Of a stretch of DNA of 64,000 nt, positions 9,979-64,000 are shown in pieces; position 1 is the first letter of the stretch, and every line of letters starts with the position of its first letter. The DNA is from a virus (Duplodnaviria; Heunggongvirae; Uroviricota; Caudoviricetes): the IMG/VR virus record IMGVR_UViG_3300030047_000010; one strand, written 5' to 3'. The notes beneath the pieces were generated by a model. It saw only the letters and a list, made by a program, of their open reading frames with translations, was not told the origin of the DNA and made no database searches. A program made the position numbers and the translations under genes.

Positions 9979-9983
9979 TAGAA

Positions 9984-12823: not shown

Positions 12824-12843
12824 TTGCAGTACCCCTTAGCTCA

Positions 12844-17061: not shown

Positions 17062-17124
17062 TAATTAAGCATATTAGAAGTGTACATACATACTTTCATT
17101 CATAGTTCTCCCGTATTAATGAAA

Positions 17125-27913: not shown

Positions 27914-27942
27914 TTGACAAAAATACAAATAGAAACTATATT
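27914..27942 (+). promoter_or_regulatory. Sigma70 promoter TTGACA-N17-TATATT driving the plus-strand alarmone-hydrolase gene
   Basis: Exact -35 and -10 hexamers with a 17-nt spacer. AAGGAG RBS and GTG start downstream. Confidence 0.7.
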
Positions 27943-28524: not shown

Positions 28525-28553
28525 TTGACAAATATGCAAAATTAATGTATATT
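28525..28553 (+). promoter_or_regulatory. Sigma70 promoter TTGACA-N17-TATATT. Its spacer aatatgcaaaattaatg matches the conserved promoter family.
   Basis: Seen directly. Confidence 0.65.
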
Positions 28554-31391: not shown

Positions 31392-31420
31392 CAGTATCTC
31401 CTGATCACCCCAAGAAGTAT

Positions 31421-31456
31421 AAACCAAAAAGGATCTACCAACATTGGTAGATCCTT
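31421..31456 (-). terminator. Intrinsic terminator. A 12-bp stem (aaggatctacca/tggtagatcctt) with a 4-nt loop, followed by UUUUUGGUUU.
   Basis: Seen directly, between the SPFH gene and the REC gene. Confidence 0.75.
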
Positions 31457-31485
31457 AGTATAGCATTACATAGATGCACTGTCAA
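31457..31485 (-). promoter_or_regulatory. Promoter TTGACA-N17-TATACT. Its -10 abuts the terminator hairpin, so the predicted TSS falls inside the 5' arm.
   Basis: Seen directly. Confidence 0.5.
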
Positions 31486-32673: not shown

Positions 32674-32702
32674 AAGATACACTTAACTTGCATACTTGTC
32701 AA
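32674..32702 (-). promoter_or_regulatory. Promoter TTGACA-N17-TATCTT for the membrane-protein/SPFH operon
   Basis: Seen directly. Confidence 0.5.
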
Positions 32703-36894: not shown

Positions 36895-37143
36895 TTAACA
36901 AGTTGGTGTGAGTACCGTTACAAGTTTATTATCTACAAGAGATTTAATGTTACTTGTATGTATGATTTTAGATGCTGTCTCTTTATTATCTGCTAAGATA
37001 CGAGGAGCATTATTAGATAAGAAAATAGGTGGATTAGTTGATATAACAACTTCACCTGTTGTAGAACGAACAACAGCTAAAAAGCCAATCTGTTCAGATA
37101 TTTCAAGAATATGCATGTATTTAAGTTCCTGGAACGGCACCAC
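36895..37143 (-). CDS. Hypothetical protein, 82 aa
   Basis: ORF. Confidence 0.35.
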   Translation of the reverse strand: MVPFQELKYMHILEISEQIGFLAVVRSTTGEVVISTNPPIFLSNNAPRILADNKETASKIIHTSNIKSLVDNKLVTVLTPTC

Positions 37144-40100: not shown

Positions 40101-40525
40101 TTTTGTCTCTGCATGGACAGACTTATCATCTTGTCCATAGAGCTCTCAAGATTCTTAGATACTTCAGACATCTCTCTCTTAATAGAGATCGCCATACCAC
40201 GAATAGTCCGATTAAACTCAGCAGAGGTACGAGCCCAGAATGCCTTGGAATCCGTAGAGATACCCGATATGTTCTGGTTCATGCCTTTCTGCGATTTAAT
40301 CATTGTCGCATATAGAGCCTTCTCAGCTTTTATGCGACGTTGCCAATCGGCATCATACAGCTTTCTATCTCGTTCCATCTCACGAGTCATGAAAGCGTAA
40401 TCATTGGCCGACTTGCCCGAGATCAAAGGACTTGTCGGCCCCGATGGCTGTGAGGAGGAACTAACACCAACATGTGGACCATGAGCTCCAGGTACAACGG
40501 ATCCTGTAGACATAGATTCAGGCAT
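37121..40525 (-). CDS. Tape-measure-like protein, 1134 aa. It has a long N-terminal coiled-coil region, central Gly/Ala-rich hydrophobic segments, and a Gly/Ser/Thr-rich C-terminus.
   Basis: Composition and architecture. TAATG coupling to the upstream 148-aa gene (chaperone position). Confidence 0.5.
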   Translation of the reverse strand: MPESMSTGSVVPGAHGPHVGVSSSSQPSGPTSPLISGKSANDYAFMTREMERDRKLYDADWQRRIKAEKALYATMIKSQKGMNQNISGISTDSKAFWARTSAEFNRTIRGMAISIKREMSEVSKNLESSMDKMISLSMQRQKKADDALRAAVKQGDLYTYQLASYKAKNESNRLNHATTYKRKNIELQEASRAKTVYETKMSRGETLSPEDYRAYERLTGEIRDLEREMKKLNMVNMFLAKGITDVEQAMRAADIELDYAEKHFKSMEQRMSEWKVNSMEAANHTLTFANALHHLGEAFRVLYKDYALFTDQAYKMNGVMDLNNLSFATLAKNTVSLEVSNAKLRLFAATAGISTEEFDQLNGKLFNTYTMMDKFGKLDNRKYEMMGRELLSYSRQTGASLDETIGIHAKLRMQFGKTNSEAIRSMHSIIAAQKETQSATSNAFGDFATFNDDFQKSIESVIDGYSGFKLDISGVTSLFKDQVQVAAKLGYTYQQSFDIAKKFTGLLTKKNSSYMSYHTGQIVLSQAEELFGGEQGLKSLQDMKPDERGKYIEKVLGTGKGKASGFKTSDIQDLSNAVTNTMYGPAAIQAADMLEGSTPMIAAKLQQLDTMQQQGLGSGPAFKAIMGEQGGPDAMREYQMMQDMLKNRGSKSYTQLGAELKATNDKNGEKQAPDKAATFLDPTNLWNHFKDFWDKSPLGQLGKFAAVLTGAVVLNTMALGVNTIALLGNTGGKAAGVLGSIGRKIPGIRGILGPAKIPGGVAGEVESGVLKKSSSLGKVAKVASKFGTPGKLLAGAALAAGGIWGLTKLWDHYSNKSPQDQSKEQQAELDAQNLLGNTGDQVDEQKKTNEKLDKISDNLGKGGAGSGGGLMGTVGTVAAGATGVAGGLAAYFGIKGLLSSGADDAAIAAKAAEAATGAKTAEAVGEGAKAASAGAKTVSKLTPFLEALGPIATYLTTEGPDGRKMAAATGAALGGTAGLIGGGGLLSAVLGTAGMIGGEHLGTGIYDTWLADKTLIKGNAHMPSLAKSPTDFDANTVAGAVGQSTAGTGASSGTIGSNGKPVSTTGTPSGVGTGSFTNVGRDGTAELTLKVKVANMHHAVRTVLRDDYNTQHSDSGMARTAWEPSVIGGAVPGT

Positions 40526-43418: not shown

Positions 43419-45218
43419 TCAAGGCAACTGTAAACATTTTGTCCACGACTTATCCACATTGTAGCTTTTTAGCGCTGTGATCAATCCAAAAATATAAGGA
43501 CGCTCAAAAGCAACGCCTATATCGAACAAATGAAAGAAGATAGGAAGATCTTCTGTTGTATACTGCTGGAGAATACTGACTAGAGTAGGTAGATACGAAA
43601 CAGCATAGGACGGGTCAAAGTCAGAGGGGCACTGCTCTAAAAGCATACGAGCTAAAGAACTTGAGCTATCCACAGGAAACAGATCTGAGTTCATAAGCAA
43701 CACAGGATTCAGTGATGTTAGAATCTGCAGAATAACACCAAGATCACGATATTTATGTGCAACAAGATCCAAATAAGAGAACGACTCTAGTGCAGAGTCA
43801 AAAACAGTAGGAACATACTTAGCGTAGTCGGGCAAATCTAAAATATCAACACCAGTGTCTACTAGGGCACCTAAGAACTCAGAAGGATCCATATGCGTTG
43901 GTACCATATGCAGGGCAGTATACACAGATATTACATCAGCTAGATTACATTTCGCTAACGCTCTGCGCAGAGCTATTGCAGTTGAAGCATCATGCGATAA
44001 TGCTAAAACACGACCCACAGCCTTAGATGTAACATCGGAAGCCAGTACATAAAATACAGAGGGACATGCTGTAAGCAGATACAACAAAGCCTTATTAGAA
44101 GAAACTAAATCCAACAGCGAGAATACTATCCAAAAGACATTACGATCAGCTTTAGGCGAGATAGTAAACTTAAAGTTACCACCCACACCTGTCGTTAGCA
44201 ACGCATACAAAGAGTCGCGGTAAATACCGGATAAATCATCTGTAGAGCATGCCGTGATCGCATAGCTGCCGGCATTAGACTTAGTGGCTGAGAGCGTTAA
44301 ATGATCACGCAGCGCTGTTCTTGCATAAGCATCGGAAGGGGGAGGAACGTCAATATGGCATTGATTTCCATCCAACTTCAAACGAACATGGGTAGACACA
44401 GAGCTAATAGGACTCAAACTAGCTATCCTCAGTAGCTTATTCACATAGTCACTTTTCAGGGCTTCTGGATCGCATGCAACAGATACCGCCCAAGCCAGTC
44501 TCCGAGCAACTACCAAAACATCCTTAGCTTTTTTATGGTAGTCAGCACCACCAATTAATCTAAATTCAATATAGTTTTTAGATTTTATCTTTGTAAAATT
44601 AAAGCTAAAATACTTATCCCACGGAATAACATGCTCCGTACTGCTAGATACAGGATACAAAGGTCTTTTTACTAGCTCTTTTATCTGATCTGTAACGTCA
44701 TGAAAAGAACTCAAATAATCAGATACAAAAGGCTCTAGACGCTGAGCATAGTCATTGTCAAAGCGAGCAAACATCTGAGCTATATGAGCTTCGCCAATAA
44801 ACACAACCAGTTTTAAGACATCAAGAGTCTCAGACAGATCTACACCATCCAAGCTAACACCAATATGAAAACCGCAGCTTTCATTAGTTCCACCAAAGGC
44901 ATCTATAAAATCAAAAACATGTTCAACAGAAGAACTGAACTGCGGGTACGATAATATAGGAGATACAACCTCAACGCCCTGGGCAGACGTATTGGGTATT
45001 TGTATGGTACTGTCATCTGTTAAATTCCAGTAAGAGTAATTAGGATGTTGAAGTTTACCCTCACCGAGCTGATCATTGATACGACTATGATGTCCTACGA
45101 ATTTAGATAAGGCTGTACCTACATCCAAATGAACAGACTGCAATTTGCGCGTATCTAAGAAACACTCAGCTTCAAACCCCATACGTGTATGACCTAGTTT
45201 AACAGGCTTTGTATTCAT
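43419..45218 (-). CDS. Amidoligase-domain protein, paralog 1 (599 aa). The N-terminal ~300 aa have GS/GCS2-like carboxylate-amine ligase motifs: GFEAE, EVVSPIL, CGFHIGVS and YIEFRLIGGADY.
   Basis: Shares the motif set with the three upstream giant paralogs. Confidence 0.6.
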   Translation of the reverse strand: MNTKPVKLGHTRMGFEAECFLDTRKLQSVHLDVGTALSKFVGHHSRINDQLGEGKLQHPNYSYWNLTDDSTIQIPNTSAQGVEVVSPILSYPQFSSSVEHVFDFIDAFGGTNESCGFHIGVSLDGVDLSETLDVLKLVVFIGEAHIAQMFARFDNDYAQRLEPFVSDYLSSFHDVTDQIKELVKRPLYPVSSSTEHVIPWDKYFSFNFTKIKSKNYIEFRLIGGADYHKKAKDVLVVARRLAWAVSVACDPEALKSDYVNKLLRIASLSPISSVSTHVRLKLDGNQCHIDVPPPSDAYARTALRDHLTLSATKSNAGSYAITACSTDDLSGIYRDSLYALLTTGVGGNFKFTISPKADRNVFWIVFSLLDLVSSNKALLYLLTACPSVFYVLASDVTSKAVGRVLALSHDASTAIALRRALAKCNLADVISVYTALHMVPTHMDPSEFLGALVDTGVDILDLPDYAKYVPTVFDSALESFSYLDLVAHKYRDLGVILQILTSLNPVLLMNSDLFPVDSSSSLARMLLEQCPSDFDPSYAVSYLPTLVSILQQYTTEDLPIFFHLFDIGVAFERPYIFGLITALKSYNVDKSWTKCLQLP

Positions 45219-45235
45219 AGGATAATTATTCCTAG

Positions 45236-48200
45236 CTACTTACAAAAGTTTTCAAAGAAATTATGCAGGTATGCGGTTGTTGACAGATTCTTAGCCACAT
45301 AGCGAAGCAACGGATAAGGCATATTGGGATCTAAAACACGCACGTGATTAACAGGATCAAACTCAACAAGACCTCGGGCAAATTTATGCAACAGAAGCTT
45401 AATAGAAGACTCTGTCCTAGGATCAGCATACCTTCCTGGTATCTCATTTACTAATGTTTTATAAAATCCCAAAGATCTCTCAGATAACAGGATAGATGGA
45501 TTAACAAAAGCTGCAAAATAACCAAGCATCACTAAGTAATCTTTAGTATCAAAGGTCACAGGACCTAGCTTAGTATCAGGAGATAACAGCAAATAGAAAA
45601 AATCACTCCAAGTATAACCGTACACTCTATGTGTCGTACTAGAACTGTGTGTCTCTGCTTTAGCGTCTGACACCAGAGCAAGCACTAAGTTGGTAGTAAA
45701 ATCTGGGTATTTAAGACCCTCTAATAGTACCTCAGGTTTAATCAAGCGATTCCCCTGATCATCCATCGGGTATATAGACGCAGATGTCAACAGACCAAAA
45801 CCCATAGCTTTAACAACGGGTGCTCCCGACTGTATCTTCACAAAAAGATCAGGCATATCTTCAGCAGGCATAGCTTCAACAGCACCAAAGAAGTCAGATT
45901 TATGAAACGGAGGGTTTGCAATATAAGAAATTGTATCTTCTACAGATCTACGCTCACCACGAGATGGTTGAAAGGGTGCAGAGAACTCATGAACATAGGG
46001 TGCTGTCTCATGCTGTAACTCTTTAGTAGCTATTGGTGCCACATCACGCACATCAAAACCCGCACGTCTAAGAGACTCAATGCGATTAGTCAAAAAGCCA
46101 TTCTCATTAGTAGGGTCAACAGACTTACTCTTATAGGTTGAGAACACTTTATCCAGCAATAAACAGTGTGGCGCTATCTCGGTTATGTAGGAAGATGCTA
46201 CAAAGGCGTCTACTGTCATTGCCAACGCCTTAAACGTAGGCTCAAAAATAAAGCCTTTCTCAAAAAACGCAGTTAGTATTTTAACACCTGCCTCATTCAA
46301 CAAAGGTACATAGATACTTGGAGGAGCATCCATTGCACCATTAGTGATACCACCACTACTGGCAGAACTCACATAAGTTAAGTAGGCACGCATAAATGCT
46401 GGCAACTCTTTAGACGCAGCACTACTAGATAAAATCTTATGGAATAACTCGTTAGCATAACTACTATGTAATACTGTGGTATAAATAGTATCTACGTCAC
46501 CCCAGCTAAGAACAGATAACAAGTGTTTGTCAAATTCATGCAGCGCGGATGTAAACCAAAATGCGATACCCGCATTATGCAGTATCTCATTCTCAACAAG
46601 GGAACCGTGAACGTTTTCATAATTAGCAAGCCAACCAGATACTAATTTTATGCAGAAATCATCATCATCAATAAAATCTTCTGTTTTAATATAACTCAAT
46701 ACGTCGGGACCATTAAAAAAAGCAGAAATGCTGTCTCTAGGATAGTTCTGATTCTTAAGTCCAACGAGTATCTCATTTATCGTGTGCATATCAGGATGCA
46801 GATTAATACCAGGTATATTTGTTATACCTATCTCGTTCAGTTCTGCGTTAGATAAATCTAACGTTAAGGCATTACGAGGAAACGTCTCGGATGCACGCCA
46901 ACCGCCGTGATCTTTGATTATCTGAATTAAAGCAGGACGCACCTCAGAAGCAAAACCCAGTTTATTTATTACACCATAAATAAAACCAAGGTTCATTTCT
47001 GCCACATCTCTTCTCATGAATAATGCATCAACTTTAGCTGTATCAGACAGTACTTCTTGTACAAAAGCATGGCTAGCCTGTGACGCATTTACTAAATAAC
47101 CCTTCGTAGCTAAAGAACTTAGCAGCATCTTAGCATCTACTGAGTCACTCGCCACAAAAGCGGCTTCAGCTATCTTACCAACAAAACTAGAGGTAATACC
47201 AGACGGTATCATACCATACTGCAAGATACCACGAAGAGCACTCAAATAAGAATCAGAGATACCGTCTTTAGGTTCTACACCAAAACCAGCAAGGAAGTAA
47301 TCTAAATAAACAGGATGATCAAGAAAGTAATCTTTATTATAGATTACATAAGGATCTGAATCACCACCATGTTGAGATAAGAAGAAACCTAAGTTAGCAT
47401 ATGAACAACCAGCAGCACCCCGAGGTCCTACAGCCATAGTAGAAATAATGGAAAACAGTATATCTGTACAATTTGAATTTTCTGCAAGAGCCTGCATAGT
47501 AAACTGAGAAAGCTGCACGCTCGTAGTTAACCCAAATAGATGTAACAATGTTTCAGTATACTTACCGTAAGCCAATCTCTGCGAAGATCCATGGTCCAGC
47601 GTTAGCAAGACTTCCGGCTTTAAGCTGAACTCGTGACTCCCGAGAGAAATGCTTCGACCACCATACTTCTCAGCCAACGCCTCTATCTGACTCTCTATCT
47701 CAGATGAGAATCCAGCAGCAGGATTATCCGCCTCTATGTGCGTAAGGCTACTTCCAGTATAAATGAAACTAAATAACCGAACACGACTCTGATCCATATT
47801 TGCAGGAAAATCTACTAAAGAGAATCCATGGGTATTTGCTATAGCTTTAACACGATGGTCATCCTCATGAGTAGCTTCTTTATACTTATCTAGGAACTTG
47901 TACAATTTAAGTGCAAAAACATCATCATAAGCATCACAGGTTGATGCGTACAAAGCATAAGCAAACCTACGAGCTACACGTGCTAATAATGAAAACTTGT
48001 GCTCATAACCAGCACCACCAGGCAACCTAAACTCGATACGCTGCTTATCGGGGAAGTCTTTCTGGCTAACTATATTGGAAATATTAATAGTACCATAGCG
48101 ACCAATGTCATCACTGCGCATCTCTTGATAGAACTTATCAAGATCAAACTGTTGCATGCTCTTCATGCCAGAAGAACGAGACAATTCAGCTACCATAGCG

Positions 48201-48763
48201 AGCAAAGCAGGCTTTACAGATTTTGCATAGCTTGTATCATTACGCCCAAAAACCAATCTCCAGTAATCCTCACCCAGCAACAGGTACAGCTTAGCAACAT
48301 TGACCTTAGTTAGGTTAGTATCCTCTAGACTGAATGTTATATGCAATCCAGTAGAGTTATTTGAAATAGCTAGAGCCTTACCACTCTGCTTAGTTGCCAT
48401 CAACGAGCAGACCTTCTCCAAAGACCCCAGCATAGCATCTATTCCAAGTATCGGGGAGACTACTTCAATCTGACACTGGTGCTCCGGATCAACCTGAATT
48501 GATGTGTCTGACTCTACCGACCAATAGCGGTAATCCCCATCATGAGATGCGCCGTAACGCTCACTTACAACTATGCTACTCCTATTGATGCCTAGAGCCA
48601 ATTGTAACTTATCTGCAAAATCAGACCACCATAAAGCAGAAGCCATTTCAGCTTCAAAGCCGCAGCGAACAGCAGGACCCTTATACTTAGACCAGTCAGA
48701 ACTAATACTATGAAGATCTCTATCGAACTGAGATGCCGTTACAACAGTATAATCAGTCGCCAT
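45236..48763 (-). CDS. Giant amidoligase-domain protein, paralog 2 (about 1176 aa from MATDYTVV…). Motifs: RCGFEAE, YGASHDG, WSVESDTSI, EVVSPIL, TGLHITFS, RIEFRLPGGAGY and RFAYALYAS.
   Basis: Motifs conserved across four tandem genes; divergent helical C-terminal ~850 aa. Confidence 0.65.
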   Translation of the reverse strand: MATDYTVVTASQFDRDLHSISSDWSKYKGPAVRCGFEAEMASALWWSDFADKLQLALGINRSSIVVSERYGASHDGDYRYWSVESDTSIQVDPEHQCQIEVVSPILGIDAMLGSLEKVCSLMATKQSGKALAISNNSTGLHITFSLEDTNLTKVNVAKLYLLLGEDYWRLVFGRNDTSYAKSVKPALLAMVAELSRSSGMKSMQQFDLDKFYQEMRSDDIGRYGTINISNIVSQKDFPDKQRIEFRLPGGAGYEHKFSLLARVARRFAYALYASTCDAYDDVFALKLYKFLDKYKEATHEDDHRVKAIANTHGFSLVDFPANMDQSRVRLFSFIYTGSSLTHIEADNPAAGFSSEIESQIEALAEKYGGRSISLGSHEFSLKPEVLLTLDHGSSQRLAYGKYTETLLHLFGLTTSVQLSQFTMQALAENSNCTDILFSIISTMAVGPRGAAGCSYANLGFFLSQHGGDSDPYVIYNKDYFLDHPVYLDYFLAGFGVEPKDGISDSYLSALRGILQYGMIPSGITSSFVGKIAEAAFVASDSVDAKMLLSSLATKGYLVNASQASHAFVQEVLSDTAKVDALFMRRDVAEMNLGFIYGVINKLGFASEVRPALIQIIKDHGGWRASETFPRNALTLDLSNAELNEIGITNIPGINLHPDMHTINEILVGLKNQNYPRDSISAFFNGPDVLSYIKTEDFIDDDDFCIKLVSGWLANYENVHGSLVENEILHNAGIAFWFTSALHEFDKHLLSVLSWGDVDTIYTTVLHSSYANELFHKILSSSAASKELPAFMRAYLTYVSSASSGGITNGAMDAPPSIYVPLLNEAGVKILTAFFEKGFIFEPTFKALAMTVDAFVASSYITEIAPHCLLLDKVFSTYKSKSVDPTNENGFLTNRIESLRRAGFDVRDVAPIATKELQHETAPYVHEFSAPFQPSRGERRSVEDTISYIANPPFHKSDFFGAVEAMPAEDMPDLFVKIQSGAPVVKAMGFGLLTSASIYPMDDQGNRLIKPEVLLEGLKYPDFTTNLVLALVSDAKAETHSSSTTHRVYGYTWSDFFYLLLSPDTKLGPVTFDTKDYLVMLGYFAAFVNPSILLSERSLGFYKTLVNEIPGRYADPRTESSIKLLLHKFARGLVEFDPVNHVRVLDPNMPYPLLRYVAKNLSTTAYLHNFFENFCK

Positions 48764-51700
48764 AATAAGGGTACCCATACATAGGAAATAGTGATGTTAC
48801 TTTATGGGATTTCTTATGCTCATGTATCAAAGCATCAATCAAAGCAACATGCGTATGCAATTTAAGGCCCGTATATACCTCAAATAATGCATCAGGTAAA
48901 GAATCAGAGCTAATCTTATTAACAATACCAACATGAACACAGAATTTATACAGAGCAACAAATTCCTTAGAGCAGAAAGCTTCTGGAGATACTGCATGAT
49001 CACCTATAAAGGCGTCCAATAAATCAACAAATGAAACATGTTGCCTACCCACATGGGTAATAGAAGCATAAATAGAATAGAAAGGTAGCAACGAGGAGAA
49101 CAGAACAGACCCCAATTCAGGATTACTCGTACCACCAGTAAACATATTAAATCTACGAAAATCATCGTCAGGTATTAAAATAGATTCTATATACTGAAAC
49201 AAGAATGTTCCCATACCCGGTGATGTAGATGTCATATAAGCACGTGCTATGTTTGATGTCAGCAAGGAAGCAGGACAAGGTCCAGACTTAGTAGCAGCAA
49301 ATATAGTCCTTGCCAAAGAATCACCGAATGATTGTGCCTCCGCACTAGGTGCCGGGCAAGAGTACAGCTCATCAAGCTGCTTAACTGTGTAAGCATTCAG
49401 ATTAGTAATCAGTAGATGTGATGCTTTGAACGGCAGGGGTGCCAGAGAAGCACGATCCACCTCTTCACCACTAGGAGAGCCAAAGAAAGAAGCTAATTGC
49501 TTAGGTGTCAATCTATACTGAGCAGAGAAATCAGCAGGATACGGTACCACAGGCGCATCCTGCAACTCAATGTGCATTTTAGGATATGTAACAATTAAAT
49601 CTTTTTGAGTTGTTATTTTAGTAGATGCCACTTGATAATCTGAAAATATACCCCTAAGACTGTCCGCCGCAGGATCCCCGGTAGTAGGGTATGTAGAGAT
49701 CAGCTTACTTATAGCATCAAACAAAGAACACGCGGGCAGAGGGCGAGATAAATTACACAACGCATTCATGTGGTGTAAAAAATCATCTGTTACAGAACTC
49801 GTCCATGCACCACGATAATGTTTTACAGCAGCATTAAAACAAGTAGCCGATCCTGCACCTAAAGCTTGAGCACCATAAGTACCGTACCCGATAGCTATCA
49901 AGGCGGCTAATGTCAAGGCACCTTTTTCTTTTAAGCTATCTTCTGTCTCTTTCTCTTTACTCATGTCGTGTAAGTAAGCACGATACAATTCAGATTTAAG
50001 CTTAGGTGCAATGTCTAAAATCCGGGTTCCTTGATCTACAAAAACATTAAGTTTCACATAGAGTTCATCATTGCCCTCCATAGCAGCATTTTTCATGTTT
50101 AAGACACAATGAACAGCGGCCTGTGAGACTACAGTAGAGTCTAGCTGCTTGGGTATCGTATCTATGATACCCTTAGCATAAGCTAAAACAAAAGCAGTGG
50201 CTATCTCAGAAACGTCAGTACCGGTATAAGCACCGGCTGACTCTAACTGTTTTGCTGTATTTGAGAGAAATATTTTTATAGTTAATGGAGGAAGCTTATT
50301 TGAAAAATCAGTACCATCATAATTTAATAACATATCATCTGTGAGAGAATCAACCAGCGCATGTGCATGCATGGTCTCCATGTACTTAACAAAATTAGGC
50401 AACTTAGGGAAAATTATACCCAATACAGGACTTATGGCCTGGGCAGCCATACCCTGCATATTTAGAATTATTCTAGTAGAAACCGTACTAAGCACAGTAG
50501 GGAGTTCTACCTCTGTAGTATCTTTGGCACCTGTATCAGCAATATCCGATACATGCTCTAATAGAACATTAAGCTCTTTTACAAAAATATCATCTGAAAG
50601 AGCATCAGCATTAAGTGTGCCAGCTAGCTGCCTACCTATATAGGCACTAACGGGAACAATTAAAGATTCTTTCTTCTCTTCGGGTAATAAACGCAAGACA
50701 TCTAAATAGAAAGAAACCTCGTCAGGGTCAATCGCGTCAGCGTAGCTCTTAACTGTCCCAGGGAAACACTCAGCAAATAACCAATAGTGAGTTTTCAAAC
50801 GAGCTACAAAAGACTCATCTAGTTGAGATAACGAACTAAGTATTATAAATGGTATCGGCCTATTACCATTAAACCGTTCTCCCCACGCTGTTTGTACCTC
50901 ACGTTGATAGTCTGAGGAGTTTAGGTAATTAGCTATGTCAGCAGCAGGAGCTTCAACCGTGTGCATAAGATCAAACTTATTCTTAGCTAACGGATCACCA
51001 GCTAACTGGTCTAAATGAACACCGCGAAAATCACCATAAATCAATGTATTTAATTGATCATTATACTGAGCATGTAACTTAATGATGTCTGATGCCTTAG
51101 AATTCCGTATAGCAGCTACTATTCGGCTCAAATATAACGAACCACCAGGGGCCAGCCACTCACTACTCGCATCTTTTTCTTTTTGAACAGCCTCTTTTAT
51201 GGACTCAGGCCAATTCACGTCAATTGTAGTAGTAGCAAACTTTGAAACAGATAATTCATCTACAGACGTATGGGGCAGATAGATATAATGCTGCACCGAG
51301 CGTGTATCTGGTACGCTGCGTGGTAAGAGAAATGACCTTAATAGGGAGGATACAACAGTATCACTTAATTTGAACTTAGTATTAATCAAAGCATAACTAA
51401 CATATCCCAAGATTGAGTTAGTCTTAACCAAATTAATAGTACCCGTGATAGATCTAAAACTCTGCTGCTCTGGGACATCTTGCTCAATACTGTAGGCACC
51501 CTCGCCAAGAGATTTAAGAGCAAAAGCCATAGCAGGTGCGGACAAGGGTTTATCATCAGGCATCAAACATAAATAAGAACTACCACCAGTAGAACGAACA
51601 CGCATAAAAACTTTAGATTCATCGTATATCTGTGTAGCGCTACGCTGCTGTGCTTCAGGTGTAGCCATAAACTTCAAAGCAATACGTACAAGTTTCTGTT

Positions 51701-52601
51701 TGTAGTAATCAGCATAAGCGGTAGGGTCCGCCGAGGCATAAAAAGCATAAGCGAAACGTTCCGCAACGATAGCTAGCTTATCATCTTTATACTGATAATC
51801 CTTACCACCAGGTAATCGGAACTCTAAAACACCTTGACGAGTTTTACTCATGTTAATAGAGCGATACTTCTCCATCCTGTTATCCAACCACTTAAATAAT
51901 TCCGAATCCTGGACATCTAATGCAGATCTATTGCATAGATCTGACACAGCGGCGGCTAAATCTCTGGGATCCTTAATCTCTTTTGTCGTAACCCAATTCT
52001 TGAAATGATCTAACGCCTCTTCAGCCCAACCATTATTATGGCGACCGAATACATCACCCCAATGATCCTCCCCGAGCAGGACCGCTAGCTTAAGTACGTC
52101 AACTTTAGATAAGTCTATATCTTTAATAGAGAACGTAAGATGACAACCTGTTTCTTTATCTGTCTCACCTAAAGATACAACGTCTTGATCTACATACTCT
52201 GAAGGTAATTCAACATTACTACGGAGCATAGCCATTACAGCCTTGAGCCCGTGAATCATATCAGGGAGAGTCAAAATAGGACTAACAAGCTCAATGCGAT
52301 AGGAATGATGATTATCAACATGAATAGTACTATCAGTTTCTACAGACCAAGATTTGTAGGAACCACCATGAGACGCACCATAGCTATTGTTTACTTCAAT
52401 ACCAGGGCGAGGGCCAAGACGCTCTGGTATGCCTTCAATATCCGTCTTCCCCGGATTCTGCAGAAACGCTTCAAGTATTGTAGGGATACGATCATGAGGC
52501 AAGGCAGAAGCAAACTCAGCCTCAAAGCCGCAACGAACAGGAAGACTAGACAGATTTTTACTCAGATCTCTATCAAATTGAGCAGCAGTTACAATGTCCA
52601 T
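48753..52601 (-). CDS. Giant amidoligase-domain protein, paralog 3 (1282 aa). Motifs: RCGFEAE, YGASHGG, WSVETDSTI, ELVSPIL, TGCHLTFS, VLEFRLPGGKDY and RFAYAFYAS.
   Basis: As above. Confidence 0.65.
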   Translation of the reverse strand: MDIVTAAQFDRDLSKNLSSLPVRCGFEAEFASALPHDRIPTILEAFLQNPGKTDIEGIPERLGPRPGIEVNNSYGASHGGSYKSWSVETDSTIHVDNHHSYRIELVSPILTLPDMIHGLKAVMAMLRSNVELPSEYVDQDVVSLGETDKETGCHLTFSIKDIDLSKVDVLKLAVLLGEDHWGDVFGRHNNGWAEEALDHFKNWVTTKEIKDPRDLAAAVSDLCNRSALDVQDSELFKWLDNRMEKYRSINMSKTRQGVLEFRLPGGKDYQYKDDKLAIVAERFAYAFYASADPTAYADYYKQKLVRIALKFMATPEAQQRSATQIYDESKVFMRVRSTGGSSYLCLMPDDKPLSAPAMAFALKSLGEGAYSIEQDVPEQQSFRSITGTINLVKTNSILGYVSYALINTKFKLSDTVVSSLLRSFLLPRSVPDTRSVQHYIYLPHTSVDELSVSKFATTTIDVNWPESIKEAVQKEKDASSEWLAPGGSLYLSRIVAAIRNSKASDIIKLHAQYNDQLNTLIYGDFRGVHLDQLAGDPLAKNKFDLMHTVEAPAADIANYLNSSDYQREVQTAWGERFNGNRPIPFIILSSLSQLDESFVARLKTHYWLFAECFPGTVKSYADAIDPDEVSFYLDVLRLLPEEKKESLIVPVSAYIGRQLAGTLNADALSDDIFVKELNVLLEHVSDIADTGAKDTTEVELPTVLSTVSTRIILNMQGMAAQAISPVLGIIFPKLPNFVKYMETMHAHALVDSLTDDMLLNYDGTDFSNKLPPLTIKIFLSNTAKQLESAGAYTGTDVSEIATAFVLAYAKGIIDTIPKQLDSTVVSQAAVHCVLNMKNAAMEGNDELYVKLNVFVDQGTRILDIAPKLKSELYRAYLHDMSKEKETEDSLKEKGALTLAALIAIGYGTYGAQALGAGSATCFNAAVKHYRGAWTSSVTDDFLHHMNALCNLSRPLPACSLFDAISKLISTYPTTGDPAADSLRGIFSDYQVASTKITTQKDLIVTYPKMHIELQDAPVVPYPADFSAQYRLTPKQLASFFGSPSGEEVDRASLAPLPFKASHLLITNLNAYTVKQLDELYSCPAPSAEAQSFGDSLARTIFAATKSGPCPASLLTSNIARAYMTSTSPGMGTFLFQYIESILIPDDDFRRFNMFTGGTSNPELGSVLFSSLLPFYSIYASITHVGRQHVSFVDLLDAFIGDHAVSPEAFCSKEFVALYKFCVHVGIVNKISSDSLPDALFEVYTGLKLHTHVALIDALIHEHKKSHKVTSLFPMYGYPYYGD

Positions 52602-52614
52602 ATCAAGAAGTGGT

Positions 52615-55600
52615 CTACGCGAAGGCCGAACGCCAAGGATAGACAGGCTCTGGTTTTGTGCTATCTAGCTGATGCTCCTGATGAAGTTTATACACTTCAG
52701 AAGCTACTTTACTACGACCTACTAACTGAAGTAAATAATCACCCAAAGGTGTTCTATCCTCCGTGTATAATATCGGAGTAATGCTAGCCGACACTACATG
52801 CTTGCTGTTGTACGTGTCAATCGCAGCATCCGGTAATGTACGCAGACGTGTATTAACATGTTTACGTACATTTTGCTTAATAGCCTTAATAGCAAGATTA
52901 CTAGTTAGCATCCTATAAATATCCGGGTTGCTATCTTTAAGAGCAAGGGCAAACGTGTATGTACTAAGTAATGAATATGGTATATAAGCAACGTTACTGC
53001 CGTCTGCTACCATAGTTAAGGTATCATATAAAACTTGTGAATATGACGCACCATATAAAGTAGAAGGCACTGTTTCATCAGCATCTGTACGATGAGCAGC
53101 AAATACATACATCAGCCAATCAGCAATGGCAATCACTCCACGATTTACTGAAGAATAGCCTAAAACAAACTCATGAATAGCCTGCCATACTGCTGGGTTT
53201 GTACTTACTCTAGCTGTATCACGAATACTATTAAATTCGACAAAGTCTCTATAGATAAGAGCAGGATCCGCAAAAATAGACGTAAAGAATTTAAGCAAAT
53301 CATCTTTTGAGGCATTATCAATAAATGACCTTACATCTTCTCTTGTCAGATCGTAATTATCTGTAATGCTATACTTCCGGACCTTGTATAAAACCTCCGG
53401 AGGTACAGATTTATCTTCTGAAACTACACCTGTGTCAGATACAGGTTTTTCTACAGGATAATCAAACGGTTCCTTTTCACTCAACTTTTCGGCAAAGGAT
53501 GAGCGCCATGTCTGAACATCCGTGCGAGATACCTTAAGATTAAAATAAGGACCGGGCTCTGTCCCTTCGTAAGCATCACCAACACGGAAGTCTAGTGGTA
53601 TAAAATTCAGGCTAGCTAATCGTATTGTTGTCCTGCGGTGCTTGGTCTCTTGACCTGCAAGATAATCCAAAACAGGAAGTAGAGTACCTGTATACTCTCG
53701 TGTCTCATAAGAAGGAAACTCGTAAAAAACAGATTTATTATCCCAAGGATATTTCATGAGACCTAAAGCTAGAGACTTGAGCAGAAAATTCAAAGCATCC
53801 TTACCAAACGCCAAGTGCTTATCTACGACAGGTACATGCTGCAATAAAGAACAGAAATCTATGTGACTTGCAGCAGACATAGTCCGCTTAATGTACGGAA
53901 AAAGAGTATCAGCCTTAGTGAAAAGATCTCGAAGAAAAGCTGTAGGCTTAATACCAAAAAGCCACGTGTAGTCATGATTATACATGTTTGAGTTTGGTAT
54001 AAGTGCTACAGCAGCAAGAGCACCGAACCAAACAGGATTTTTTAAGTATATCACAGCAAGAGCTTTATTTACTGGAAGTTTTAATCCAGATCTATTCAAA
54101 AGCCAAGCTGCTCTTGCTAGCTTAAAAGCAACAACGGAGCTACTTCTGAAAGTTTCAAGATCACTTTCTGTAGCGCTATCTAGAATATGCAACGTATCAG
54201 GTATAGACAATGTATCCCGAGACTCAGCTTCCAACAGAATATCATAAACACTAATTTTTTCACTACCTTTACGCAACTCAGAGTTTACAGTAGTTGCTAT
54301 AGCTTTTTCTATATCTAATTTGGCTGAATCTGGGATATCTGAAGATGTTATAGGGCTTAGTATATCTTCCAGTATGTAAGAACTGTCGCCATCGGCAGCA
54401 GCGCTACCATCAAAAGTAGCGAGCTGTCTTGTACACTTAAAAAGCAGCTCTGTAAATGTAGTCAGACCATAAGTTTTGTACACTATGTACAAAACAGATT
54501 GACACTCAGAAACTGCAGGCTTTGACTGTATGCAATCCTTTAATAATACAATTAAACCAGCACAATCTAAAGGATTGGACACAGCCTTTAAGGAAATTAT
54601 ACCCTTAATGATAAACGACACATTAGTTGTCGAAGGGAAGACATTAAGAATATCCTTAGATAGAGAATTACTTAGTTTACGATAACGAGCTAAACTGAGC
54701 ACAGTACCAAAACTCATATAGCCCATAGATGTACGTTTTAGCACTGCAGTACTACCAATGTGGGCCAGCATAAACCCAGAAGTGAGATCATCAAGAGCAT
54801 TATCGGCAGAATAATCATAGTTTGAATCTAGCTTCGCCCATACCCAAAACTTAAAGTAAACAAGACTCTCAGGAGATAGTGCAGACTTAGCCCATATAAC
54901 AAGCTGTCCAATAGATTTGAACTCAGTATCCGACGTAGGAAAGCTACCAATGTTATGAGCAAACTGTAAGCAACCCATAACAACATAATTAAGAGCAAAA
55001 GCAGACGCCCACACACGAGACTTCCCAGATAACTGACCGATCTTTTCTACGATACGAGGTACAATAGACCAGTCTTGTGGATCATTAGATCTAATATCAG
55101 GAAAATCTAACGTTGGTCTTGCTTGAATAGCTAAAACAAGAGTATTCAACTCAGGACGATCTAAACCATCACACACAGCTTCCTGCCCTTCAATGCAGTG
55201 AACTGCACCGGCAATAGACCACAACTGCGCTTCAGAAAATTTCCTCACACAGTCAAAAAAAGCTTCATTTGCATCACCATTGATAGCACGATGCACGCCG
55301 ATGTGCTTAACATCACTCCCCGAAAATACAAAAGAAGCAACAGCCGTAGCTGTAGGCTTTTGCATACGTGTCTTTTCAAACCGCATTAACTGATGTACAG
55401 TATTACGACCCTCTTGTGTAGTTTGAATACGAAATGTTCTATTTGTATCAGTCTGATTAAGAGTAGCCTTATCAGAGCGTGCCTCTTCTTGTGCCGCCAG
55501 CACTAAACGAGTCAGTTTCTTAATATAATAATCATTATATTGAGTCATCCCAGCACGAGATACCCATAGAGCATTAGCCAGAACACGCATTAGCCTAGAG

Positions 55601-56424
55601 CACTGCTCAAACTTATTCTCATACCCAGCCCCACCAGGAAGCCGAAACTCAATACGAGAAGCGTCTTTAGTTAGATGCTGAGTATTAACTGATTGGTACC
55701 GATCAGATAAATTAGCACTAGCTTCTTTATATGCAGCGAATAGTGTGTAAAGACCTTTATTATCTTCACCTACAGCTTTGATATTCTCAGAAAACCCAGC
55801 AAAAGGCTGACTTGCATGTATTCGTACAAACTCAGCACAATCAGAAGGCGTTATAGTTACTTTGTCAACCTGATACAAATAAGCAAGAAGTTTTTGCTTG
55901 AATACTGTTAAAAACTCCAGAGCATAGCCATAAGCAACACGTCCAAAAAACTTAGCGTAATAGCTCTCACCAACAAGAAACAAAAACTTCAAATGGTCAA
56001 ATTTATCCTCATATAAATTAACATCTTTAATGCTAAATGTCATGTGAAGACCCGTAGCCTGCGCTGTCTTGCCATGACTCTTAATCAGTTCAAAAACAAC
56101 ACCAAGGTCATCTATAGTCTTTTCTACATCTTGAATCGGAGATACAATTTCAACCTGGTTAGGATACTGTATTGCTGTTGGGATAGAGCTATCAGATTCT
56201 ACAGACCAATCCTCATAAGAACTATTATGAGACGCCCCATAACTCTTAGCTATAATAACAGCACCTGTTCTATCTTGTAGGTTTTCTTCTAAGTATTCAC
56301 CACAAGTATCGTAAGATACTTCAGATGCGAACTCAGCTTCAAAACCACAGCGAATATTGCTCACAATGGATTCATCTAAATGATTAGAATCTTTTTCAAA
56401 CTGAGCACCCAGGGCAAACAGCAT
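52615..56424 (-). CDS. Giant amidoligase-domain protein, paralog 4 (1269 aa). Motifs: RCGFEAE, YGASHNS, WSVESDSSI, EIVSPI, TGLHMTFS and RIEFRLPGGAGY.
   Basis: As above. Start coupled (TAATG) to a 45-aa acidic ORF. Confidence 0.65.
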   Translation of the reverse strand: MLFALGAQFEKDSNHLDESIVSNIRCGFEAEFASEVSYDTCGEYLEENLQDRTGAVIIAKSYGASHNSSYEDWSVESDSSIPTAIQYPNQVEIVSPIQDVEKTIDDLGVVFELIKSHGKTAQATGLHMTFSIKDVNLYEDKFDHLKFLFLVGESYYAKFFGRVAYGYALEFLTVFKQKLLAYLYQVDKVTITPSDCAEFVRIHASQPFAGFSENIKAVGEDNKGLYTLFAAYKEASANLSDRYQSVNTQHLTKDASRIEFRLPGGAGYENKFEQCSRLMRVLANALWVSRAGMTQYNDYYIKKLTRLVLAAQEEARSDKATLNQTDTNRTFRIQTTQEGRNTVHQLMRFEKTRMQKPTATAVASFVFSGSDVKHIGVHRAINGDANEAFFDCVRKFSEAQLWSIAGAVHCIEGQEAVCDGLDRPELNTLVLAIQARPTLDFPDIRSNDPQDWSIVPRIVEKIGQLSGKSRVWASAFALNYVVMGCLQFAHNIGSFPTSDTEFKSIGQLVIWAKSALSPESLVYFKFWVWAKLDSNYDYSADNALDDLTSGFMLAHIGSTAVLKRTSMGYMSFGTVLSLARYRKLSNSLSKDILNVFPSTTNVSFIIKGIISLKAVSNPLDCAGLIVLLKDCIQSKPAVSECQSVLYIVYKTYGLTTFTELLFKCTRQLATFDGSAAADGDSSYILEDILSPITSSDIPDSAKLDIEKAIATTVNSELRKGSEKISVYDILLEAESRDTLSIPDTLHILDSATESDLETFRSSSVVAFKLARAAWLLNRSGLKLPVNKALAVIYLKNPVWFGALAAVALIPNSNMYNHDYTWLFGIKPTAFLRDLFTKADTLFPYIKRTMSAASHIDFCSLLQHVPVVDKHLAFGKDALNFLLKSLALGLMKYPWDNKSVFYEFPSYETREYTGTLLPVLDYLAGQETKHRRTTIRLASLNFIPLDFRVGDAYEGTEPGPYFNLKVSRTDVQTWRSSFAEKLSEKEPFDYPVEKPVSDTGVVSEDKSVPPEVLYKVRKYSITDNYDLTREDVRSFIDNASKDDLLKFFTSIFADPALIYRDFVEFNSIRDTARVSTNPAVWQAIHEFVLGYSSVNRGVIAIADWLMYVFAAHRTDADETVPSTLYGASYSQVLYDTLTMVADGSNVAYIPYSLLSTYTFALALKDSNPDIYRMLTSNLAIKAIKQNVRKHVNTRLRTLPDAAIDTYNSKHVVSASITPILYTEDRTPLGDYLLQLVGRSKVASEVYKLHQEHQLDSTKPEPVYPWRSAFA

Positions 56425-56561
56425 TAGTTAAGCTCCCTCTCAGAGGCAGCCGACGCTTCTTGAGGAATATAATCGTCCAAGTTATCTAAAACAGCAGCAG
56501 ATACTTCTCGTATCTTGCCGTCAAAGTCAACATAGCGTAAGGGCTGCTCAGCATCAGGCAT
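56424..56561 (-). CDS. Small acidic protein, 45 aa (MPDAEQPLRYVDFDGKIREVSAAVLDNLDDYIPQEASAASERELN). Below the ORF-track cutoff.
   Basis: Hand translation. GAGG RBS. Its stop overlaps the ATG of paralog 4 (TAATG). Confidence 0.4.
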   Translation of the reverse strand: MPDAEQPLRYVDFDGKIREVSAAVLDNLDDYIPQEASAASERELN

Positions 56562-56596
56562 AGAAAAACCTCTAGAGATATCTTTACTAGAGGTTA
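56562..56596 (-). terminator. A 9-bp hairpin (aacctctag/ctagaggtt) followed by UUUUCU and then immediately an AUG. The 3' arm contains the GAGG Shine-Dalgarno.
   Basis: Seen directly. Confidence 0.45.
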
Positions 56597-56621
56597 ATTC
56601 GCATACATACTTTTATGCAGT

Positions 56622-57519: not shown

Positions 57520-57548
57520 AATATACATTCAATTTGTATGCTTGTCAA
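57520..57548 (-). promoter_or_regulatory. Conserved promoter element, copy A: TTGACAagcatacaaattgaatgTATATTtgttcttgtcacctcaa
   Basis: Exact sigma70 hexamers with a 17-nt spacer. About 45 nt shared with copy C. Confidence 0.7.
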
Positions 57549-58612: not shown

Positions 58613-58641
58613 AATATACATTAATTTTGTATGAATGTCAA
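58613..58641 (-). promoter_or_regulatory. Conserved promoter element, copy B: TTGACAttcatacaaaattaatgTATATT
   Basis: Seen directly. Confidence 0.65.
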
Positions 58642-58866: not shown

Positions 58867-58895
58867 AATATACATTAATTTTGTATGCTTGTCAA
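58867..58895 (-). promoter_or_regulatory. Conserved promoter element, copy C: TTGACAagcatacaaaattaatgTATATTtgttcttgtcacctcaa
   Basis: Seen directly. Confidence 0.7.
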
Positions 58896-63900: not shown

Positions 63901-64000
63901 GGCGCACAGCCGAGCTATTGATAGCAGATGCTAAATTAGCAGCCGTTAGCAGAGATGTTGTATCAATTACAACACGAATAGCACTACGGTTTGTCAAGTT
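60980..64000 (-). CDS. Giant T/S/A/G/V-rich structural protein, 1005 aa or more; the N-terminus probably lies beyond the right edge. The C-terminal ~330 aa resemble a contractile tail-sheath C-domain; the rest looks like Ig-like or fibre-like insertions.
   Basis: ORF open to the window edge, with only a TTG at 63997. GAACALWAARP… resembles the sheath xSGxxAGxYARxD region. Assignment is tentative. Confidence 0.45.
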   Translation of the reverse strand, partial: NLTNRSAIRVVIDTTSLLTAANLASAINSSAVRLTAANDVSSTYGKITLTNKVAGTIGNAANSYTGSAAVILTQPTNGTDASVNLSATTTALISALNSASTALGMVATSDDSTVGLVHLTYGAQFTLTALPTAADTVTVALGSTTNVFTFRALADATGATDVAIGTTVAATVANLAAKLSAEVSYLVAHTDVTVTVAHAYGRSLTLSKTSSVVTILSSVVDNASASSVGNVAITAVSTLSNVTLAGMSGGVVAADAPDHLTFAWGVGGDIFAGGTFTVAETDKATKEFTLVRGIKVKLSQAIASHAAGSVVFHSQPAVADLLTVTDGLGESAHVFEFSTTGTVTSGHTAVLIGSSIATTAANLVATVNAATTALAITASLSGSTVTLVNDKTGTGSSNAYNTAITTTSTHLATTGFAGGKENYAVGDVYTFTVKAPRKFPTAYDSRTVEFTVSQVGLTGSGVTTDNGYVAFTYSSSTPEGGFGSVTAATSSYGYFSLPGQLTYAARNTIPTVSGANRFAVGDKFTTKFVNNEVIYWDLDTKVSESFTADDILVDRSGAVTGSIGALYIALESTPVTKYGVKATMSGVTFADYTLSGNQILLTATSTASISGTLVFNYVSVGSEPSLGSTYYISGNYKRPASKYNTLLTYSTYEDARDALAPMTASNNLAIMNELAWSQSYTPVKVGFIQIQDSDDDGVISTDDVTNALEAAASVSGITEVTPIGLSSFLSKIMAFDEKGQDPFEKREHITWYGFPIGTAVGDSNTVGTLVYYAQNTLKSYGSALTHGRRVMIGHTKATMTITLYDGTDTSVTLDGSFINGAACALWAARPNNSTTLLKKNLLGFDTIDTYSDTDNNTLGAASIIWLKPNGAGVYQFMEDITIDNSDATFQSLLATGTKLDAERVVRREMDAGLVGVVADTPESGVALVRTKLVTILSGLVSQGLIAPYQTSDGSPRAISSADILVYVDSSDPTLYNFFYVIYSRTVIKRLYGMYSVNKNLFTSSAS

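Follow-up and report, generated by a model that had tools for sequence, protein, structure and literature searches.

Four giant paralogs with an amidoligase domain form a conserved tandem array in a clade of uncultured jumbo phages

We describe four large genes that stand side by side, all co-directional on the minus strand, in the genome of a 375-kb uncultured jumbo phage. Their products, called A to D here, are ancient paralogs, each with a carboxylate-amine ligase domain of the glutamine synthetase (GS) fold that keeps all the conserved acidic, histidine and arginine residues of its family. Together with a coupled leader ORF the four genes form a module that is kept across a clade of uncultured jumbo phages, distant kin of PaBG, phiRSL1 and the Erwinia and Dickeya jumbo phages. 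A-D are a new architecture and gene array within a known, biochemically uncharacterised enzyme family.

Results

The array was analysed within a window of 64,000 nucleotides, by which we mean the whole stretch of DNA under study, and all features given below lie on the minus strand. Paralog A (1269 aa, 52615-56424) and paralog B (1282 aa, 48753-52601) each begin with an Amidoligase_2 domain at about residues 1-330 (55435-56424 and 51612-52601, respectively), which is followed by a C-terminal region of about 940 aa in A and about 950 aa in B. Paralog C (1176 aa, 45236-48766) is modelled as a ligase domain (residues 1-300, 47867-48766), a small beta domain (residues 305-381, 47624-47854) and an all-alpha solenoid (residues 384-1176, 45239-47617). 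The ORF of this third gene covers 45236-48778 and would encode 1180 aa from its first ATG; we use the ATG at 48766 because it agrees with the start of the orthologue P0012. Paralog D (599 aa, 43419-45218) has its ligase domain at about residues 1-275 (44394-45218), then a leucine-rich C-terminal region of about 325 aa, and is without the N-terminal TAAQFDRDL helix present in A-C. Spacing is tight, the stop of the leader ORF overlapping the start of paralog A and the remaining gaps or overlaps measuring 13-26 nt. These ORF coordinates bear out the four co-directional giant genes of 599, 1176, 1282 and 1269 aa that the original prediction had read from the DNA.

The N-terminal ligase domain of about 300 aa is common to A-D, with 28-38% identity over the first ~250-390 residues (BLASTP, E 2e-14 to 7e-46), and the same comparison of the C-terminal regions gave no significant similarity. 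The resemblance among A-D far exceeds chance, and the array is also present in related contigs. A locally built HMM of the domain found exactly four copies within the window and none elsewhere in it. All four proteins pass the gathering threshold of PF12224 Amidoligase_2 (22 bits), with scores of 48.0, 31.5, 43.7 and 32.3 bits for A, B, C and D and E-values of 2e-12, 2.1e-7 and 1.2e-7 for A, B and D, which upholds the predicted assignment of the N termini to the amidoligases; paralog D also matches PHROG 2443, 'amidoligase enzyme' (E=3e-9). Amidoligase_2 was the sole significant Pfam match of A-D, the Gln-synt_C and GCS2 families giving none, and profile searches of PDB sequences with the ligase domain returned no solved GS or GCL chain, or any other structure, at E<=10.

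Nine residues (E38, E40, D87, E101, H142, S146, R175, E245 and R247) are invariant in 17 family members, the D group included, and the identical ligase residues are also invariant in 31 distant giant homologues, so the glutamate, histidine and arginine residues listed in the original prediction are indeed conserved. The shared motifs that it named are present overall, but the 599-aa protein carries degenerate forms of GASH and WSVESD (GKLQH and WNLTDD), and RFAYA(L/F)YAS occurs in the 1282- and 1176-aa proteins and not in the 599- and 1269-aa proteins. In the model, G-F-E38-A-E40, W82/D87, E101, H142/S146, R175 and E245-x-R247 map to beta strands. The residue order is ExE, D/E, E, H, R and ExR, which we take to be the order of the GS active site, and from this order and the strand positions we infer that the residues of A-D correspond to that site. 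The modelled fold of the domain resembles structures of GS, GCL, YbdK-like proteins and PafA/Dop, in line with the similarity to GS and GCS2 folds that had been foreseen. Judged by these conserved residues, the ligase domains are apparently working enzymes.

In the full-length model of paralog C (pLDDT 79.2) the C-terminal ~800 aa form a confidently modelled alpha-solenoid, whose Foldseek matches are solely alpha-solenoids, and the expected alpha-helical character is thereby supported in the 1176-aa protein. Profiles of the four groups, compared with one another over their C-terminal regions, gave nothing significant; the best match, between B and C, is colinear but weak (E=5e-4, probability 30%), and common ancestry over the whole length is possible. 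Within each protein, conservation is highest in the ligase domain (76-87% identity to the closest relative, compared to 61-77% for the C-terminal regions). It had been suggested that the C-terminal regions may be under diversifying selection, an idea that found no support: they evolve faster than the ligase domain, yet form stable, length-conserved orthologous groups across related phages, down to ~25-30% identity, and this argues against hypervariability. At the ~68% protein identity between relatives, substitutions at synonymous sites have already reached saturation.

The module of the array is also found in at least four related metagenomic phages and is syntenic in the relatives L001, L002, L026 and L027. 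Paralog A has the orthologues P0013 (67% identity), P0018 and P0022, paralog B has nine (28-70% identity; P0001-P0008) and paralog C has P0012. Paralog D is the most conserved of the four, with 81%, 73% and 60% identity in relatives, and is 100% identical to P0014, which is encoded on a 375.6-kb contig. BLAST searches of 50,697 phage records with the nucleotide sequence of the region and with the protein sequence of paralog A gave no match, and the ligase-domain profile matches 3,856 cluster representatives.

Directly before paralog A lies the leader ORF, which encodes a 45-aa acidic protein; the predicted coupled ORF was confirmed at 56424-56561. It occupies the same position in five lineages and occurs in 8 database clusters, with a length of 40-56 aa, and it is restricted to the clade with the array, while the ligase family is very widespread. 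Its core, LRYVDFDGxIQxVSxxVLDNLDxF[IM]P, looks like a small folded or binding motif, and its C-terminal tail varies in length and in final residue (N, N, N, D, D, G, I and T). The leader was rejected as a candidate Pup-like modifier because its C-terminus is not conserved. Directly upstream of the leader is a hairpin (56567-56595), a possible terminator or translational control element, with a 9-bp stem and an 11-nt loop, followed by a U-run; its RNA fold is -17.3 kcal/mol (z=-3.5), it is also kept in L001, and a GAGG Shine-Dalgarno sequence lies within its 3' arm. The nearest upstream copy of a sigma-70-like promoter element with a conserved spacer, TTGACA-N17-TATATT, is at 57520-57548, and the window holds 9 copies of this element where 0.63 would be expected. 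The nearest promoters recognised upstream of the array are of this type and stand before small genes, an arrangement commoner among early genes, which speaks against the array encoding virion proteins.

A large upstream ORF (60980-63997) that extends past the window edge was judged by eye to be tail-sheath-like in its C-terminal part. It is 1475 aa long in L001, and had no Pfam, PHROG or PDB match and a sole BLAST match, to an unannotated hypothetical protein of Virus Rctr197k. Downstream, an ORF of 1134 aa (37121-40525), also present downstream of the array in L001, L025 and L027, is by eye tape-measure-like, its N-terminal part resembling a coiled coil and its C-terminal segments being hydrophobic and rich in Gly/Ala; it had no match in Pfam, PHROG, BLAST or PDB searches. 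At least ten neighbouring ORFs searched against PHROG, Pfam, tblastn and PDB yielded nothing usable, and the window contains no tRNA genes. The array had been placed inside a structural block, and by eye its flanks do look sheath- and tape-measure-like, but no HMM, BLAST or PDB match identifies them as such, and the wider 64-kb window is of mixed functions, including many non-structural genes, with no clean structural block.

The closest cultured-phage homologues are gp196 of Agrobacterium phage Atu_ph07 (AUZ94978.1, 'amidoligase enzyme', 500 aa) and ORF26 of Ralstonia phage RsoM2USA (523 aa; 27.5% identity in the ligase domain), both phages being jumbo myophages. Atu_ph07 gp196, whose gene adjoins the portal gene, shares 35% identity with the ligase domain of D (E=3e-18) and is also a Foldseek match, and mass spectrometry of a PEG-purified virion preparation detected it through 14 peptides that cover 30.2% of the protein (PMC6102473 supplement). 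Virion proteomics of RsoM2USA comprises ten bands and is silent on ORF26. Unlike A-D, gp196 and ORF26 are single copies with no alpha-solenoid tail and no leader ORF, and a ~200-aa insertion splits their first ligase strand from the remaining domain; the other architecture of gp196 (500 aa) and the PEG purification of those virions count against a virion location for A-D. Among more distant relatives the ligase domain is fused to SLT and LysM modules (P0037), to GH19 and to Peptidase_M48, is fused to or adjoins gamma-glutamyl cyclotransferase (GGACT; distant relatives only), and in L013 belongs to a giant that adjoins a ParB-like+SOD protein and a virion structural protein. P0030 combines a cytidylyltransferase-like domain (CTP_transf), three ligase domains and a 5'-nucleotidase domain (NT5C), polypeptides with two or three ligase domains occur in several relatives, a BFVD entry joins the ligase domain to a cytidine/deoxycytidylate (dCMP) deaminase-type protein, and the gene of P0037 is flanked by NT5C and CTP_transf_like genes. 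The NT5C, cytidylyltransferase-like and dCMP-deaminase-type fusions point to nucleotides rather than the cell wall. The idea that A-D are ejected cargo gains indirect support from the virion homologue and the fusions to lysin modules; the flanking genes, on which it also drew, are assigned by eye only. From these homologies, A-D are probably carried in the virus particle.

Discussion

The reading that we favour, with a probability of about 0.5, is that A-D are ATP-dependent amide ligases, targeted by their solenoids, that travel in the virion and do their work at genome delivery or shortly after it. Each ligase domain would spend ATP on turning a carboxylate into an activated acyl-phosphate and would then join it to an amine, with an amide or isopeptide bond as the product, as happens in GS, GCL and PafA. 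Through its non-homologous solenoid tail each paralog would have a separate partner or target, and this would account for the persistence of the four copies as distinct orthologous groups. A-D would be made together with the tail and virion genes, be carried in the particle and act as the genome is delivered or just afterwards. The likeliest substrates would be carboxylates of glutamyl- or diaminopimelyl-type cell-wall peptides, or a host protein or peptide. A link to the cell wall is suggested by the relatives in which the ligase domain is joined to GGACT or lies beside it, and by the hypothesis of Iyer et al. 2009 for phage amidoligase cassettes, as cited in PMC5498523 and PMC10580990. Substrate and timing are the weakest steps of this explanation. 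A bolder version, which we regard as unlikely, would make A-D a new class of virion-delivered effectors that, upon entry, place covalent amide or isopeptide marks on distinct host targets such as cell-wall peptides or proteins, driven by host ATP and guided by the solenoids, with the leader as cofactor, inhibitor or co-substrate. As injected effectors they would be the ligase counterpart of the ADP-ribosyltransferases and acetyltransferases known to be injected by phages.

It is possible, if somewhat doubtful, that A-D instead work inside the cell and are absent from the virion, as enzymes that make or modify a nucleotide, a DNA base hypermodification or some other small molecule. The four ligases would then add amide-linked groups one after another, in the manner of the four Mur ligases, and the solenoids would assemble them into a complex. 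The fusions in P0030 and the BFVD protein, the NT5C and CTP_transf_like genes beside P0037 and the nucleotidyltransferase gp195, neighbour of gp196 in Atu_ph07, all fit such a role, as do the sigma-70-like promoters upstream of the array, the relatives with two or three ligase domains, which suit multi-step synthesis, and the co-occurrence of amidoligase genes with thymidine-hypermodification clusters in viral metagenomes (PMC8989533). Given the nucleotide-metabolism fusions elsewhere, a role in nucleotide or DNA modification is possible. However, the scanned ORFs of the window include neither genes of nucleotide metabolism nor hypermodification genes (5-hmdU kinase, aGPT-Pplase or dUMP hydroxymethylase), gp196 is present in virions, a cytoplasmic pathway does not readily account for the SLT, LysM and GH19 fusions or for the tail-like neighbourhood, and 800-aa alpha-solenoids are unusual among small-molecule enzymes.

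That the proteins are large and, in the model, dominated by alpha-solenoid, and that they are encoded in a tail-like neighbourhood, would also suit mainly structural or assembly parts of tail or head (internal, ejection-channel or scaffold proteins) in which the ligase fold is kept for binding and not for catalysis, and tandem paralog arrays of virion proteins are found in phiKZ-like jumbo phages. We consider this improbable, as the catalytic-type residues are invariant in the four groups and in 31 distant relatives and no part of each protein is better conserved than its ligase domain, the opposite of a degenerate enzyme fold. Still more improbable is a pupylation-like system in which host or phage proteins would be tagged by the ligases with the acidic leader as a modifier. 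Pup ends in an invariant GGQ/GGE, whereas the end of the leader is variable with no conserved final residue, its core resembles a small folded or binding motif, and it is confined to this clade of phages, while the ligase family is very wide.

Amidoligase_2 is a very large enzyme family of phages and mobile elements, and in the literature searched we found no member with a known substrate. With four intact, separately conserved copies, and a well-modelled candidate targeting scaffold in C, in an apparently tail-associated module, this locus is a good entry to the targets of these ligases. Should A-D be injected, phages would possess, in ATP-dependent amide ligation, a chemistry of takeover or counter-defence that had so far gone unrecognised; should they act on nucleotides or DNA, the phage hypermodification repertoire would be extended. 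In either case, thousands of giant phage proteins now called 'hypothetical' would gain an annotation.

A-D share family, motifs and GS-like fold with the 'putative amidoligase' proteins of phages and ICEs from Iyer et al. 2009 (among them those of phiEco32, LUZ24, RIO-1 and PSA-HP1). The known phage amidoligases are standalone proteins of ~250-400 aa, encoded in a cassette with a class-II glutamine amidotransferase, a gamma-glutamyl cyclotransferase and an ATP-grasp enzyme (PMC5498523). In contrast to the phiEco32/LUZ24/RIO-1 cassette, A-D are fused to tails of 325-950 aa and stand four in tandem, and none of the 56 other ORFs of the 64-kb window matched the Pfam families of those three partner enzymes. 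Structure-based sequence identity to GS, GCL/YbdK (GCS2), PafA and Dop is only 10-17%; A-D are without the N-terminal domain of GS and give no sign of its ring oligomer, and, unlike PafA/Dop with Pup, are accompanied by no Pup-like modifier with a conserved C-terminus. Polyvalent proteins (PMC5512222), T4 Alt and the N4 virion RNA polymerase are large enzyme-bearing phage proteins whose genes lie near those of the virion and which enter the cell along with the DNA. A-D resemble these packaged effectors in size and in having an enzyme domain, and may do so in gene position. Amidoligase is absent from the domain catalogue of polyvalent proteins (Iyer et al. 2017, PMC5512222). Polyvalent proteins have at least two effector domains; A-D have one recognisable catalytic domain each, and only the distant relatives P0030 and P0037 combine two or more.

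Organization and source of the array

According to the ORF listing and translation, the minus strand is the transcribed strand for the whole array region, and a leader encoding an acidic protein of 45 aa (56424-56561) is followed on it, in transcription order, by the four paralogs A (52615-56424, 1269 aa), B (48753-52601, 1282 aa), C (45236-48778, 1180 aa from the first ATG) and D (43419-45218, 599 aa). The start of C was taken at ATG 48766 (1176 aa), in agreement with the start of its orthologue, and ORF translation bears out the protein lengths of the original prediction. The genes are tightly spaced, abutting or overlapping (13-26 nt), and the stop codon of the leader overlaps the start of A. 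An HMM of the shared N-terminal domain (the ligase domain) finds exactly four copies within the window, and pairwise BLASTP among A-D gives 28-38% identity limited to the first ~250-390 residues (best E = 7e-46), with no significant similarity past them.

A database protein from a 375.6-kb metagenomic contig matches D with 100% identity and is present on eleven contigs. The large terminase and portal of the window are ~30-35% identical to those of PaBG, phiRSL1, BcepSauron, and Erwinia and Dickeya jumbo phages, and searches of 50,697 deposited phage genomes with the array, at the nucleotide and the protein level, gave no match. Taken together, these observations indicate that the source is an uncultured jumbo phage with only distant cultured relatives.

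The ligase domain

Pfam PF12224 (Amidoligase_2) matches A-D, all over the gathering score (E 2e-12 to 2e-7), and PHROG 2443 'amidoligase enzyme' also matches D and B. Invariant across the four paralog groups are G-F-E38-A-E40, Y79, W82, D87, E101, P105, G140, H142, S146, K159, G165, R175, E245-x-R247-L-x-G and Y254, nearly all of which fall on modelled beta strands, and in 31 distant giant homologues little or no variation is seen at the corresponding E, D, E, H, S, K, R and E-x-R positions. The amidoligase domain of the original prediction, with its E/H/R residues, is thus confirmed, as are most of its motifs; two are degenerate in D, and RFAYA(L/F)YAS does not hold outside B and C. The modelled fold resembles glutamine synthetases (GS) of types I, II and III, gamma-glutamylmethylamide synthetase, the YbdK-like protein 1TT4, glutamate-cysteine ligases (GCL), the Pup ligase PafA and the depupylase Dop, so that the anticipated structural kinship appears in the model, but not in sequence-profile searches with the ligase domain, which reached no solved structure.

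The order of the residues appears to be that of the GS active site (an E-x-E strand, two acidic strands, a His strand, an Arg and an E-x-R strand), an equivalence based on motif order and strand position. Judged by these residues, all four copies, D included, look catalytically competent, and we consider both the domain identity and the predicted competence well supported. If it works as GS, GCL and PafA do, each domain would most likely form an acyl-phosphate on a carboxylate and then transfer it to an amine.

The A, B and C groups keep an N-terminal helix motif, [TG]A[AS]QF[DE][RK]D, across all relatives, which is absent from D. This helix (residues 1-20; A 56365-56424, B 52542-52601, C 48707-48766, all minus strand) precedes the first ligase strand, is low-confidence in the model, and could be a targeting or packaging signal.

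Tails and conservation of the array

The full-length model of C (mean pLDDT 79.2) has three parts: the ligase domain (residues 1-300), a small beta domain (305-381) and an uninterrupted all-alpha region (384-1176, pLDDT mostly 80-95). Searched with Foldseek against the PDB, it matched only generic alpha-solenoids (karyopherins, SF3B1, FANCI/FANCD2, VPS35L) at TM-score <=0.2 (best E = 3.6e-4), which indicates that the C-terminal tail of C is a HEAT/ARM-like scaffold without a specific relative. Against viral models the ligase domain alone matched, the hits including 254-1071-aa 'amidoligase enzyme' proteins of uncultured phages and of Agrobacterium phage Atu_ph07. Profile-profile comparison finds no significant similarity among the four tails; a weak colinear signal joins those of B and C (E=5e-4, probability 30%).

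Related metagenomic contigs carry corresponding arrays of a leader and ligase proteins: 45 aa + 1266 + 1288 + 1170 + 599 (L001), 52 aa + 948 + 1292 + 1230 + 628 (L027), 40 aa + 1284 + 921 + (110) + 888 + 1183 + 584 (L002) and 44 aa + 1263 + at least 646 (L026). In L002 a 110-aa ORF (9700-10032) that the window lacks separates the genes of the 921-aa and the 888-aa ligase proteins. Genes downstream of the array (about 247, 385 and 1134 aa) are likewise syntenic, and array copy number and membership differ among lineages. Every window paralog has its own orthologues, down to ~21-30% identity; in closer relatives the alignments span the whole protein, in more distant ones the ligase domain and C-terminal part. 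This alignability, together with identities to the closest relative of 76-87% for the ligase domains and 61-77% for the tails, indicates that the tails evolve faster than the ligase domain, yet are not hypervariable, contrary to the diversifying tails first proposed. The pattern is more in keeping with four non-redundant functions than with a cassette that diversifies rapidly, and the conservation of four paralogs whose solenoid tails are unrelated suggests as many targets or partners.

The wider family

Searched against 1.84 billion proteins, the domain profile picked up 3,856 cluster representatives, with E<1e-30 for 541. Typical matches are either proteins of 450-800 aa, with the domain at about residues 200-450, or giants of 1,100-2,900 aa, of which there are many; in the aligned giants an insertion of roughly at least 200 aa separates the upstream G-F-E-x-E strand from the rest of the domain. 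A distant branch (22-31% identity) on marine IMG/VR contigs (L005-L024) has the domain at about residues 400-650 of 1,400-2,470-aa proteins (for example L006:8141-15559 and L013:8765-14773). Elsewhere the domain has multiplied through internal duplication and not gene arrays, since two or three ligase domains stand in tandem in single metagenomic polypeptides (P0023, P0026, P0028, P0029, P0030, P0031).

Fusion partners comprise SLT and LysM (P0037, 2288 aa), Glyco_hydro_19, Peptidase_M48, gamma-glutamyl cyclotransferase (GGACT), cytidylyltransferase-like and 5'-nucleotidase domains (P0030, 2938 aa), a C-terminal Cu/Zn superoxide dismutase (SOD; L006) and a deaminase-type domain. Neighbours on the contig of P0037 are a GGACT+ligase protein, an NT5C gene and a CTP_transf_like gene, and on L013 the gene after that of a 2002-aa ligase giant encodes a ParB-like+SOD protein, with a virion structural protein next. 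These fusions and neighbours point two ways, to virion-borne lysin/polyvalent-type proteins and to gamma-glutamyl and nucleotide chemistry.

Virion association and alternative roles

Virion association with action at or after entry is, on indirect evidence, the best single reading, at a probability of about one half. The closest cultured-phage homologue is Atu_ph07 AUZ94978.1 (35% identity, E=3e-18), which we equated with gp196 by comparing the lengths of the genes that surround the portal gp198; 14 peptides of gp196, covering 30.2% of it, were detected in virions (57.94 kDa; supplement of PMC6102473). The SLT, LysM and GH19 fusions also count for virion association, as do the neighbouring genes. 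Downstream, the 1134-aa ORF reads by eye as tape-measure-like, with a long coiled-coil-like N-terminal part and hydrophobic Gly/Ala-rich C-terminal segments, both typical of tape-measure proteins; upstream, the C-terminal part of an ORF of over 1005 aa, followed by a 162-aa ORF, reads as sheath-like. The original prediction had the same impression of both neighbours, for which HMM, BLAST and PDB searches gave no support.

Counted against virion association are the upstream sigma-70-like repeats, the hairpin before the leader, and the non-structural domains elsewhere in the window. ORFs of the latter between portal and array were placed by eye from N-terminal sequences and the pooled Pfam list, all on the minus strand: radical-SAM (14913-15749), DenV-type pyrimidine-dimer glycosylase (16684-17061), ADP-ribosylglycohydrolase (19600-20496), YAcAr SLOG (28870-29256), AAA ATPase (29253-30554) and receiver-domain (31029-31427) proteins; HD and rubrerythrin domains are in the pooled list without ORF placement. 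An intracellular role in modifying nucleotides, DNA or metabolites ranks next, as a tentative alternative. That the proteins are purely structural is unlikely, since no feature is conserved more strongly than the catalytic residues.

The phage amidoligase family is already known from Iyer et al. 2009, as cited in PMC5498523 and PMC10580990. Three features are new here, none of which was found in the literature searched: the solenoid-scaffold fusion, the occurrence in a jumbo phage of a four-gene array with a coupled leader, and the connection to a homologue detected in virions.

The leader and upstream signals

The leader is a real gene, found in this clade only, and five lineages and eight database clusters share its conserved core, LRYVDFDGxIQxVSxxVLDNLDxF[IM]P. 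Its C-terminal tail varies in length and in the last residue. This variation speaks against a modifier of the Pup kind and is compatible with a small binding partner (for example a chaperone, an inhibitor or an adaptor).

Directly before the leader, a 9-bp hairpin with a U-run (56567-56595, minus strand, z=-3.5), conserved in the closest relative, contains and would sequester the leader's Shine-Dalgarno GAGG; it might serve to terminate the upstream unit or to switch translation. A promoter-like repeat, TTGACA-N17-TATATT with a conserved spacer (..ATACAAA..AATGTATATT), occurs in 9 copies in the window against 0.63 expected, on the minus strand at 16545-16573, 21687-21715, 31457-31485, 32674-32702, 57520-57548, 58613-58641 and 58867-58895 and on the plus strand at 27914-27942 and 28525-28553. 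The copies mostly precede small ORFs, as do three that lie 1-2.3 kb upstream of the array, and sometimes sit just past a terminator-like hairpin; they probably represent a phage early or middle promoter class read by host sigma-70 polymerase. The motif AAAGTATGTW (three copies, 0.43 expected) lies each time 35-52 nt upstream of a minus-strand start codon, at 17087-17096 (DenV-like gene), 18491-18500 (lipoprotein-like gene) and 56604-56613 (leader), and may mark a second promoter class. Separately, a (Thr-Asn)x5 repeat (MSNTNTNTNTNTN) forms the beginning of the ORF that starts at 12823, and an (AT)9-type tract lies in the region upstream of that ORF; positions 12770-12880 may be prone to slippage.
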